64,000 bases of DNA from Saccostrea cucullata (taxonomy: Eukaryota), in assembly GCF_032062105.1 (NCBI RefSeq), contig NW_026921546.1:62001-126000 (forward strand), in the 5' to 3' direction. The translations under genes and the position numbers were made by a program. Of the stretch, positions 3,001 through 60,868 are shown piece by piece. Every line of letters starts with the position of its first letter. Within the stretch, counting starts at the first letter, position 1. Below the pieces are notes generated by a model, which was given only the letters and a program-made list of their open reading frames with translations, did not search any database and was not told the DNA's origin.

Positions 3001-6000
3001 TTTCAAGATTTGTCAAATGTGCTCGTTGCAAACAATGATTTTGCTTTTAAAAGGATGCTGACTTTGATTATGCTTTGTTATCTTCATATTAAATCAAAAT
3101 ATATGTATTGTTTTCAAACATTCATTGTTAATTACAACAGGAACACATATATATTACAGTGAAAAGTGAAACAAAAATAGATGATACCTTTTTTTCTTTA
3201 CAACAAAATATAATCCTGGATTCAGAACAAATTATTATTATATTTATTTGTAAGTTGACTTTTGATCACACACCCCAAAAATACTAGAGTACTGTCGAGT
3301 GATTCGAGGTACATGTTTGATTGGAGCAACATTTCTTTAAATAAAAACGTATTCACTCGACTAAGTGTTAAATAACTTTCAATATTTGTCAGGTATACAA
3401 TTAGTTTTTGTATTGACCTCTGGTTTCACTTCAGATTTAAGTAGACTTCTGAGTTTGATTACGATTCGTTATCTTCATATAAAATCGTTACAATATTGAT
3501 GTCTTTTATATCTATTTGTGCGTTGACTTTTGATTATAATTATTGTTTTGTTTGAGCTTTTTCTGAGTTTGTTTTACTTTCTATACCTTTGATTTGGATT
3601 GCAGAGCAGCTATTCTTCTTGTCAGTTAAAGAACAGCCGTACCTTTGTTTCAAGTATTCACCAAACCAGGGGTTAGGACTGTTACTTATATTTATTCTAA
3701 ATACAGAGAAAGGATATTTTATTTTAATGCACCTGTTTAAATTTTTACTTTTATAGATATTTACAGATAATAAAGCTATACTTTATCCATTCACTGTTTC
3801 GTAGAAAGGCAATGTATAAAAATCCAAAACTCAAAGCTTTGTCAAGACATTTTATCCGTATAATTGCCTTTGTTATATTATATTACAGAAGGAAAACAAT
3901 CACTGTAAATGTCAAATTGAATGAATATATATGAGAAGCAAAACTTCATATGAATATATATGAGAAGCAAAACTTCATATTGGTCATCTCTAAATAACTT
4001 TTTAAGGCTATTCAATTGCAGAATACAAACACGGGTTGTTCTTACTTTTTATTGTTCATAAATCTAATTTACTTTTTAAAGCTATTAATTTTCAGAATAC
4101 AAATATGGATTGTTCTTACCTTTTAAAGTACTCGGCAAATCCTGGATACTTTCTAGTTTCAGGACTGATCCCTATGGCTCCTTCAATAATTTTCTTGTGA
4201 CCGCTAGGTGGCTCCCTTCCTATCCACGCGTCACCTCCGACCCAAATGACGTCAGAACTATTATACGATTTATCTACCATCACCATTATTCTGTATGCCA
4301 AGGCATATTGCATGAATAAGATAGCGACGACTTTTCCTATAAAAAATATAATTTATATGATACACTCAATATTTATAATATAAAAATATATGACACCTAT
4401 TACGTTAATCAAAGTAGACAAGGAAGCAAAATTATCATCAAAGCATAAGTTGGCATAACGTATTATAAATTTTATTTTAAAGGAACATTGTCGTATATAT
4501 TGAGGTTGTATTTGTTAAAGATGTGTTAAAGATGTGTCAGCTAAGCCTCGTGAAACTTTAAAACTGTTAACATATCGAGGTACATTGTACGTGAAGCATC
4601 AAAAGGATGCAAGAACTTTTCAAGAATAAACCGTTCCATTATGTACATGATTTTAATCAACGTTTAGTTCACAGCATTAAAAATTCAATACCCTCTTGAA
4701 TTCAAAATATTGACTACATTTAGCAATCAAACAAATGTAACTTACCCCAACAAATCATTAGGGGAATTGCATTTAAATGATTACTATGAAATGAACCTGC
4801 ACTTTATTATATTACTCATCAAATATTTGCCCTCTTTTCATAATACAAGGAATATCAAAACAGAGGGAAAAAGAGCAAAATAAAATATAAAGATTACAAG
4901 CAGTTCAAAATTCCACTATAATTAAATTTGATTAAGAGGAAGATACATATGTAACACTGATATATAGATAAGGAAGGTAACAGAAGTTCCACAAATTTAA
5001 ACTTTTCCTATAATAATATTTTACGTTATTCAGTTGGGATAAGATACTGTAAAATTATCTTAGAAATATTTATTACAATCTTCATCTTTGATTTTAGGAA
5101 GATTTCTTCCTGTTTTTGGTTGGGTTGGGGGAGAATGGGGTAAACTTGCCCCCTGTACATTTCAAACATATATGATTGGTTTGTTGTATCAAGACGAAAT
5201 TTAGAAGCCTCGGCTCAACCAACTGATTCTTGACTTACCGTTTGTGTTTTTCTTTTTCATCAAATCTTTCACGATATTTTCCAGCTCCTCTTCTTTGCTT
5301 GATTCCTTTACTTTTTTATCGAACCCAAAACATATCCCAGCATCCTCTGCGGCAGCTTTGATTTCTGTGTACCCCTCGGTTCCATAGTTACTATCTTCGT
5401 AAAGAATGCTTGCATATTGCCAATCCAAAGAACTACAGTAAGAAACGTACTTTTTAAGTTACTCTTAATAGAGAAATTCGAGATAAATATATCATACATA
5501 TCAAAAGTTAGTTGTTAAATTAGCATTAATATATTTATTTCCAATTCTATGTCGACACGAACTTAAACTAAAACATACTACATACACACATGTTTCATAT
5601 TTTGATATTTTTATAGAAAAAAGCAATGATGGTTATTTAAAAACAAAGCTTTATGATAAACGTAATTTTTTTTAATTTTTCAACTGACAACTTCCCTTAT
5701 GAAACAAAATACCCTTATTTCATACATATCAGGTTTATATCTCTCAGTTGATTTAATATGCAAAGGCATGCTCTGCATATGTCTAATTTTTAATTCGAGG
5801 TAAGTTTACTAAGTTATTGACAAACAAGTTGATGAAACAAGAATATCAATAGTCTCGATTAAAGTCATTATTTCTTAAGTTCTATGGTTGATATGATGAC
5901 CTTGTCATCAAATACAATTTATAAGTGAGTTAAATGCAGACTGACGTTCACTTATAGTTTGACCACTATTCACACACTGAAATTTTTGTTCATTGAGTCC

Positions 6001-59300: not shown

Positions 59301-60868
59301 AATATACAAGACATTGTAAGGGCACCCATTATTGATTTTGTTGACACATTGATTAAACTATTGATTGTTTTCTTCTTTTACAGATAATTAATATACAAGA
59401 CATTTTAAGAGCACCAACTATTGAGGAAATGAAAGATGTGTATCCTTTCAATAGAATAATATTTGATTAGATTCTTTTTATTTGGTATTTTTCCTTGATT
59501 TTCTTTGATTGTTGAGAGCATTTGCCTAAATTTCAAAATGTCTGTAAAGTAAATAATCGAGGTGTAAGTGTATAATGAGAAATGAAAATCCAATAAATAC
59601 TGTCTTTCTAATTCATGATCACCTAACTCAAGCTTTTCCTCCGTATCATTCCATTTTTCCCGATCATGACAAGGAGCACATGGTGGGTGTGATTGGTCGA
59701 CACCTTTGATGTTTCGGGTGTCCGTATTTGCTCTGCTCCTACTTTTTTTGTGTTATGGACTTTTGATCTTGAATTCTGTTTGTTATCTTCACAAGTTTCC
59801 TTATGAGAGTTTAGATATATAGTACAATGTTTGATGGAGACAGACATGTACAAACTTCTAAAGACTCAACAGCTGAGTAACGATCACGTCTGCTACTTCC
59901 TGTACCAGATATTACGAGGTCTCAAATACATACACTCTGCTAATGTCCTTCACCGTGACCTCAAACCCAGCAATCTCCTCCTCAACACGACGTGTGACCT
60001 AAAGGTAAGAAACGGGTCCTCAACATGTGATCTTTAAGGTCCTCAACACAAGTGACCTTAGGTAGGTACCAGGTGCTCAACACAAGTGAACTTAGGTAGG
60101 TACCAGGTCCTCAACATGACATGTGACCTAAAGTACTGAGACATCAAAACAACATGACTTAAATTCCTAAATCATGTGACCCAATGGTACTGTGTGTACT
60201 AAGTCTTAATCACAACATGTAAATTCAAAATAAATACCTAGTCCTTCTCAACTAAATATCAAGAACAGATAAGATAAAGGTGAAGCAATTTAACTTCAGG
60301 GCTATGACATGTGACCTTGGTTGTCAATCTTGTTCTCAAGGTGACACTGACATAAAGATTAGTCCAGTTTCCTCCACAACACTTGAACTGAGCACTGGTC
60401 AATCAGAAAATACTGTATACAGGGTTATTTTCGCCCTTTCAATCCAGCAAGCAATTTTGCCCCATTTTAAATTTGCCCAGTCACACTTTTGTTTAAGATT
60501 TTATTGTATTCTTTGAATTCGTCCCGTTTTTAATTCGCCCAGACGAGGTAAGGGTGAAAGGGGCGAAAATAAAATGGGGGTGAAAATTTCCCTGTATACA
60601 GTAAGCATAATATTTAGAAAGTTCCAGTTGTAAAAGAGAATCTGCAAAATATTTTAAAAAAAATAAAAAATAAAAAAAATAATTGTTTGATGTTTTGTCA
60701 GTGTTAGAAAATTTATTTGAGACCTTGTGTTGTAGATTTGTGATTTTGGGTTGGCTCGAGTTGCTGATCCTAATCATGACCACACAGGGTTTTTGACTGA
60801 GTATGTAGCCACACGATGGTACAGAGCTCCCGAGATCATGCTCAACTCGAAGGGATACACCAAGTCAA
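56369..60868 (+). CDS. MAPK1: Extracellular signal-regulated kinase ERK1/2 (first five coding exons; gene continues beyond the window)
   Basis: Exons 56369-56487, 57342-57468, 59384-59439, 59815-60004, 60736-60868. [88 protein letters not shown]. Confidence 0.97.
56860..57100 (+). mobile_element. Two degenerate tRNA-derived SINE-like heads
   Basis: A-box/B-box-like remnants (CAGCTTGGAGCA..GGGTTGAAATCC; CTCAATTGGTAAAGAACC..GGGTACAAATTTC); no intact cloverleaf. Confidence 0.35.
57487..57989. mobile_element. hAT-like MITE starting 19 nt into ERK intron 2
   Basis: TIR CAGTCTTCACGAAAAC / GTTTTCGTGAAGACTG; flanks TACTAT / CACTAT (6 bp, 1 mismatch); GGCCAGT subterminal repeats. Confidence 0.8.
59440..59814 (+). 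other. U12-type (minor spliceosome) GT-AG intron in ERK
   Basis: 5' splice site GTATCCTTT; branch-site-like TTTCCTTAT 59796-59804 with the A 11 nt before the 3' end; no polypyrimidine tract; interrupts MKDV|YIVQ. Confidence 0.85.
59640..59802 (+). mobile_element. Penelope-like (Naiad) 3' tail inside the U12 intron
   Basis: TTTCCCGATCATGACAAGGAGCACATGGTGGGTGTG...TTTGCTCTGCTCC...TTATGGACTTTTGATCTTGAAT.CTGTT.GTTATCT. Confidence 0.88.
60411..60603. mobile_element. TACTGTA..TACAGTA MITE (TA TSD)
   Basis: TACTGTATACAGGG.TATTTTCGCCC / GGGTGAAAATTTCCCTGTATACAGTA; internal TTCGCCC repeats. Confidence 0.85.

Follow-up and report, generated by a model that had tools for sequence, protein, structure and literature searches.

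Junction-spanning tandem duplications in the bivalve Saccostrea cucullata: a donor-biased class of mirages in CpG-depleted genes

Tandem duplications that hold exon and intron sequence of one splice junction within a single repeat unit occur in the genome of the bivalve Saccostrea cucullata and are found more often at donors than at acceptors. Our starting point was a stretch of 64,000 nucleotides (RefSeq assembly GCF_032062105.1, contig NW_026921546.1, positions 62,001 to 126,000 of the forward strand; hereafter the window), in which a first-pass annotation had described intronic echoes, i.e., decayed copies, of exon-intron junctions. Such repeats, for which that annotation knew no named system, already bear the name mirages in amphioxus. 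Echoes were present at 40 of 1,225 donors (3.3%) and at 15 of 1,214 acceptors (1.2%), a significant difference (p = 0.0009). Measured against unique intron DNA, in which dispersed repeats were masked, donors were enriched 4.4-fold (95% interval of a locus bootstrap 3.1-6.0; background 0.74% of positions) and acceptors 1.7-fold (0.9-2.6). The duplication bias toward splice junctions that had been proposed for the window, as one of two alternatives, is thus borne out at donors and is not clear at acceptors, three of which had been named and one of which proved to be a true echo. The donor bias is real, but it depends on gene family and on the masking of arrays carried by mobile elements. We hold with moderate confidence that mirage-type tandem duplications have a genuine donor bias beyond what differential survival would produce.

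The 2,439 junctions tested derive from 235 loci in about 1.9 Mb of the 1.17-Gb assembly, comprising 140 regions that surround matches to myosins, kinases, kinesins and P450s, 10 stretches adjacent to the window, and the loci that the searches found. A search with the AMP-binding family yielded almost no introns, and the Ras loci yielded only three. A set of 508 non-redundant introns (361 for discovery and 147 in a first replicate) came from profile hidden Markov models (HMMs) combined with trained splice matrices, after 37 of 423 and 18 of 334 HMM junctions had failed quality filters and 25 near-duplicates had been removed from the discovery set. An ab initio exon finder contributed the other 717 donors and 706 acceptors; cross-validated on kinesins, it found 68 of 89 exons, with 61 donors and 66 acceptors placed exactly and 4 false calls. 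An echo was defined, with an X-drop scanner, as an ungapped repeat of period 12-200 scoring at least 8 bits on each side of the junction, with the copy on the intron side. No match arose by chance among 588 detector matches once the intron side was shuffled. Since a many-copy array represents one event, the null was taken as the fraction of intron positions that lie inside the first unit of an array; a null of raw coverage was set aside as inflated by long arrays, some of which are themselves mirages. Among long-period intronic arrays, 18 of 28 recur at other loci and are therefore dispersed repeats that came with mobile elements, and they were masked for this reason.

Under the masked null the two junction sets gave similar enrichments at donors, 4.6-fold for HMM-anchored junctions (21/508) and 3.9-fold for ab initio junctions (19/717). 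The discovery set had shown echoes at 18 of 361 donors (3.6-fold) and 5 of 361 acceptors against a background of 1.39% (first-unit null, unmasked, periods 12-200). A size-matched null (20-100 bp) raised the donor value to about 10-fold, but this null was chosen post hoc and does not provide our headline figure. The positional profile is centered on the donor, with 2.5-3.4% from -20 to +20, 1.3% at +21 to +50 and 0.5-0.8% farther away, and intronic decoy donor motifs were echoed near background (6/934). GC (guanine plus cytosine) content was rejected as a cause of the donor excess, the GC-matched expectation being 2.3 against 19 observed. A control at stop codons (0/62) was uninformative because most such genes are expected to be intronless and rich in CpG dinucleotides.

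The excess follows the CpG status of genes. Loci with a ratio of observed to expected CpG (o/e) below 0.55 held 36 echoes among 758 donors and the remaining loci 4 among 467. The split persists without kinesin loci (15/481 in depleted versus 2/445 in rich loci, p = 0.002) and also appears when the ratio is computed from echo-free intron flanks (p = 2e-4). Low CpG o/e marks germline methylation. The guess of a link with the germline made from the window alone therefore agrees with the sample, in which the donor excess tracks this proxy. Within echoes, CpGs of the exon are mutated in 8 of 32 cases, as opposed to 20 of 433 other C or G bases, a decay that fits echoes being methylated in the germline. 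In the Pacific oyster, the text available of PMC4378273 places methylation mainly in the coding exons of housekeeping genes. By gene class (periods 20-100), donor echoes numbered 20/299 in kinesins, 12/459 in kinases, 4/190 in myosins, 1/200 in P450s and 0/77 in others. Kinesin loci (L173-L212) have 7% of their donors echoed, three times the rate of kinase or myosin loci, and germline expression as the cause is a guess; two or three echoes occur in single kinesin genes (L192, L195, L202, L203, L211). In two myosin II loci (L103 and L111), exon pairs match the same profile columns and look like whole-exon duplicates for mutually exclusive splicing.

The anatomy of the units differs between the two kinds of junction. 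In gapped alignments the median donor unit consists of 28 exon and 13 intron bases and the median acceptor unit of 19 exon and 27 intron bases. The exon share exceeds the intron share in 26 of 37 donor units (p = 0.02), but this bias is absent from the ungapped anatomy (19/37) and the point is therefore weak. Donor echoes have three or more copies in 27 of 40 cases, as compared to 51 of 133 intronic arrays, and the longest holds about 33 copies of a 54-bp unit. Two-copy echoes are enriched at donors (3.4-fold) and acceptors (2.7-fold) alike, and many-copy acceptor echoes are at background (5 versus 5.2 expected). Echo-bearing donors have higher splice scores (8.7 versus 7.7, p = 0.003). Mirage arrays of 1-2.4 kb fill most or much of their introns at L211 (donor 5078), L195 (donor 5958) and L139 (donor 1424).

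Tandem arrays exist at all six window positions named in the first-pass annotation, but the used junction is clearly copied in only three of them, which hold exon and intron of one junction in their unit. The first is the donor of a small Cys-rich gene judged MSMB-like by eye (26954..27056, + strand; 54 bp in 1.9 copies), where the true GT lies at 26991 and the echo GT at 27045, the unit comprising about 37 exon and 17 intron bases. The second is the ERK exon 3 acceptor (59242..59424, + strand; 89 bp in 2 copies, about 36 exon bases per unit), with the true AG at 59382-83, the exon starting at 59384, and the echo AG at 59293-94. The third is the ERK exon 4 donor (59981..60220, + strand; units of about 34 bp in several copies that decay away from the exon), with the true GT at 60005 and echo GTs near 60063 and 60097; this array is plain by eye and partly detected by Tandem Repeats Finder, and both junction detectors missed it. 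The mGluR-like duplication at an intron start (3998..4124, - strand; unit about 74 bp, true donor 4119, echo donor 4045) is a marginal mirage, as its unit begins at the donor with only about 5 exon bases; the exon (4331-4119, - strand) was placed from window protein P0121. The other two arrays are intronic and merely abut an acceptor. In the C1orf50-like gene (DUF2452) a minisatellite (48213..48529, - strand; about four copies of a 66-bp unit plus one decayed) lacks exon sequence, and its decayed last copy stops 3 bases short of the acceptor AG at 48210-11. The ERK exon 2 repeat (57255..57330, + strand; 30 bp in 2.5 copies, with three decoy AGs) stops 11 bases short of the AG at 57340-41, an acceptor deduced from the reading frame. 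The functional copy does sit at the exon end, as had been stated, but selection on the protein forces that position. With about 46 junctions by hand count, the window's three to four echoes are only mildly above the sample rate of 55/2,439. Pfam supports the labels mGluR-type, C1orf50 (DUF2452) and kinase, and the MSMB label found no PSP94 match among the exons tested. For the mGluR-type gene, the top named homologs are proteins of Saccostrea with identities of 88% and 81%.

The ERK exon 3 and 4 echoes are not assembly artefacts, since independent contigs of other organisms span them: contigs of a close relative (organism A) cover 59268-59455 and 59959-60412, and contigs of organism C cover 59297-59402 with the exon 3 echo. 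Three RNA runs of organism A supplied 15 reads that join ERK exon 2 to the next exon; all 15 do so at 59384 and none lies on the exon 3 echo at 59295. This is the only site of the window with readable joints. Splicing thus keeps using the copy beside the intact exon at this site, and likely does so elsewhere. No new exon or intron formed from a duplicated unit was noticed among the aligned echoes, which were not searched systematically for this, or in the ERK exon 3 reads. Outside the window, four pairs of sister contigs, which may be alleles or paralogs, were compared. In three of them (L181/L194, L203/L207, L185/L162) the arrays differ in the number or composition of their units; the fourth pair (L200/L209) has the same array layout, and the echo was absent from two paralog pairs. 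Between L200 (- strand, donor at oriented position 7201) and L209 there are two synonymous differences at the end of the exon, where L209 has the bases of the second echo copy and L200 agrees at one base with the first copy, a single anecdote that hints at a possible exchange between echo and exon.

Other features of the window are recorded here for completeness. A perfect 29-bp tandem duplication (3921-3980) lies in the same intron just past the mGluR-like echo. An ERK intron carries an array of six 147-bp units (61916-62803), partly repeated at 63585-63960, of the long-period type to which the inflated background in introns is due. The cluster of small, secreted-looking Cys-rich genes labelled MSMB occupies 15106-16300, 17030-19060 and 24931-27870. 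Decayed reverse-transcriptase-like fragments, a retroelement by eye, are found at 38600-44200 and 22400-23400, the former stretch holding a near-perfect 319-bp duplication (38930-39567). An intronless rhodopsin-family G-protein-coupled receptor (Pfam 7tm_1) is encoded at 36590-37813 (+ strand).

Several results weigh against a donor bias of general validity. The sample is non-random, being drawn from five gene families and flanks, and about one in ten ab initio donors is misplaced. The first replicate was unenriched, with 3 of 147 donors and 2 of 147 acceptors against 2.2% under the original unmasked null, a background of this size because long-period arrays dominate it; the size-matched and masked nulls were picked after this failure, and the mask itself, built from only about 2 Mb, is incomplete. 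When transposon-borne arrays are included by leaving the introns unmasked, the enrichment falls to 1.9-fold at donors (1.3-2.7) and 0.7-fold at acceptors, and by raw coverage repeats occupy 8.9% of introns as against 5.0% and 1.4% of junctions. The alignment of exon-boundary 40-mers to adjacent intron that had been proposed as a check of the window, run with gaps and unmasked controls, favoured donors slightly (2.8% versus 2.0%) and went the other way at acceptors (0.9% versus 2.5%). Kinesin loci hold 22 of the 40 donor echoes, and without them the enrichment is 2.9-fold (1.6-4.8; p = 0.07 versus a 2-fold null). CpG o/e is a proxy for methylation, and the cut at 0.55 was fixed after the quartiles had been seen. 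The CpG as a nick site found no support, and there is no CpG excess at echo-bearing exon ends. Finally, the RNA check covers one echo site only, in a relative.

The explanation we favour for these junction copies, which measure about 25-100 bp, joins survival to a raised rate of birth or expansion. It would begin with a local tandem duplication, probably by fill-in of a staggered break or by slippage. Copies of exon alone would be purged and junction copies would survive, and copies on the wrong, exon side of the junction indeed number none at donors and one at acceptors of 508. Donor echoes would be tolerated since the first donor is chosen, as shown for human F7, and their units multiply, up to 30 or more copies, into variable minisatellites that differ between sister contigs. 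Acceptor echoes, which by the counts seldom expand, would be less tolerated. Choice of the first donor would render donor echoes harmless, and an upstream acceptor echo would compete with the real site, which fits both the asymmetry and the longer intron part of acceptor units. Survival should yield at most about a 2-fold excess, because selection halves the ways to lose a junction copy; this ceiling is a rough argument rather than a measurement, and it would account for the acceptor excess. The leftover donor excess would then require that copies are born or expand more often in genes that are methylated and transcribed; compared to ordinary intron DNA, copies likely arise or expand faster at the donors of methylated genes active in the germline. 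A splicing-coupled break or a generally higher rate in exonic chromatin may be the cause of this faster birth or expansion, the two being inseparable here.

The most specific candidate cause of the donor excess within this explanation is a mutation process coupled to splicing, in which breaks or nicks during germline transcription just 3' of the donor (at a paused polymerase, U1 or an R-loop) would be repaired by copying the exon end. We regard it as possible, though short of probable. Small duplications are known to arise from fill-in at breaks. The short intron share of donor units, the greater strength of echo-bearing donors together with the lack of enrichment at decoy motifs, and the excess in CpG-depleted, presumably broadly expressed genes all point in this direction. 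However, strong donors may simply tolerate competitors better, and exon-rich units are easier to detect and would also be expected if exonic chromatin in general had a higher duplication rate. Extended to animals, we tentatively conjecture that methylated, germline-transcribed donors are hot spots of tandem duplication, at which breaks some 5-25 intron bases past the junction lead to copying of the exon end and give rise to unstable minisatellites able to rewrite the exon, mirages and human donor repeats being the residue.

If births were even and junction copies merely lasted longer, one copy being held by selection, survival alone would suffice. The acceptor excess falls within the 2-fold ceiling, CpG-rich loci reach 1.6-fold, non-kinesin donors are indistinguishable from 2-fold, two-copy echoes behave alike at donors and acceptors, and the first replicate was null. 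But the enrichment lies above a 2-fold null both for donors as a whole (p = 6e-6) and for those of non-kinesin CpG-depleted loci (4.1-fold, 2.0-7.2; p = 0.0075), and survival alone predicts neither the difference between CpG classes nor an expansion to many copies confined to donors, so that we judge it rather unlikely as a full account.

It had also been suggested that echoes supply spare splice sites and a route to new exons and introns, a published hypothesis that our data do not support. Echoes kept by selection as spare or regulatory sites for isoforms or new exons would agree with most echo sites scoring within 1 bit of the real site (27 of 37 donor and 10 of 15 acceptor echoes), with the use of one or two pseudo-sites in human 6-16 and CBS, and with the presence of the ERK exon 3 echo in both organisms A and C. 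We nevertheless find this account very improbable: all 15 reads at the one testable site use the true acceptor, unit lengths show no bias toward multiples of three (13/37 donors, 2/15 acceptors), and the copies accumulate CpG transitions, decay and vary from one sister contig to the other. Assembly artefacts at repeated or heterozygous sites, which the near-duplicate contigs of the assembly might bring to mind, have a negligible chance of explaining copies that are diverged with CpG-type changes, spanned in ERK by contigs of two other organisms, and common to four pairs of sister contigs.

At about 5% of the donors in CpG-depleted genes, one genome would hold thousands of natural cases, which could serve to test splicing-biased mutation, first-donor choice in invertebrates and the lengthening of introns. 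In practice, mirage arrays mislead gene predictors and primers at exon ends.

A tandem duplication has reportedly given rise to an intron in a potato RdRp (RNA-dependent RNA polymerase) gene. Intron gain by tandem genomic duplication (the Rogers model; Gao and Lynch 2009, as cited in PMC3087553) likewise starts from a duplicated segment with splice signals, but the copies described here are silent inside an existing intron, and no new intron or exon was found among them. A closer likeness is offered by human variable number of tandem repeats (VNTR) loci that span a donor, which the portion available of PMC1557585 lists as F7 IVS7 (intervening sequence 7; 37 bp), CBS IVS13, 6-16, LMNB2 and PDGF. 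Their first unit spans the donor as ours does, and the F7 unit with its 4 exon bases resembles the mGluR-like case; in F7 the most upstream donor is chosen and the later pseudo-donors are mostly silent (PMC1557585). They differ in being single loci, some of which use the second or third site, and the evidence for donor scanning comes from mammalian cells, not from molluscs. The nearest relatives are the mirages of amphioxus, boundary-spanning tandem repeats named in Adh3 (Canestro et al. 2002, as cited), where somatic instability was reported, and then described in the globins BflGb6/9 (PMC3087553) and in PGBD5 and troponin C (PMC3902484). In the accessible text of the latter two papers, the units have lengths of 10-160 bp, the genes are spliced normally, and the mechanism is described as unclear. 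The open-access literature yielded neither a genome-scale enrichment test nor a mollusc case of mirages. Amphioxus mirages, as far as these sources describe them, share with ours the occurrence at both donors and acceptors, the retention of cryptic GT or AG and the proposal of a route to intron gain; their copy number is variable, as that of our arrays may be between haplotypes. They were, however, reported gene by gene in cephalochordates. What we add to a known kind of repeat, in a bivalve, is a set of counted rates with a donor bias and its link to CpG-depleted genes.

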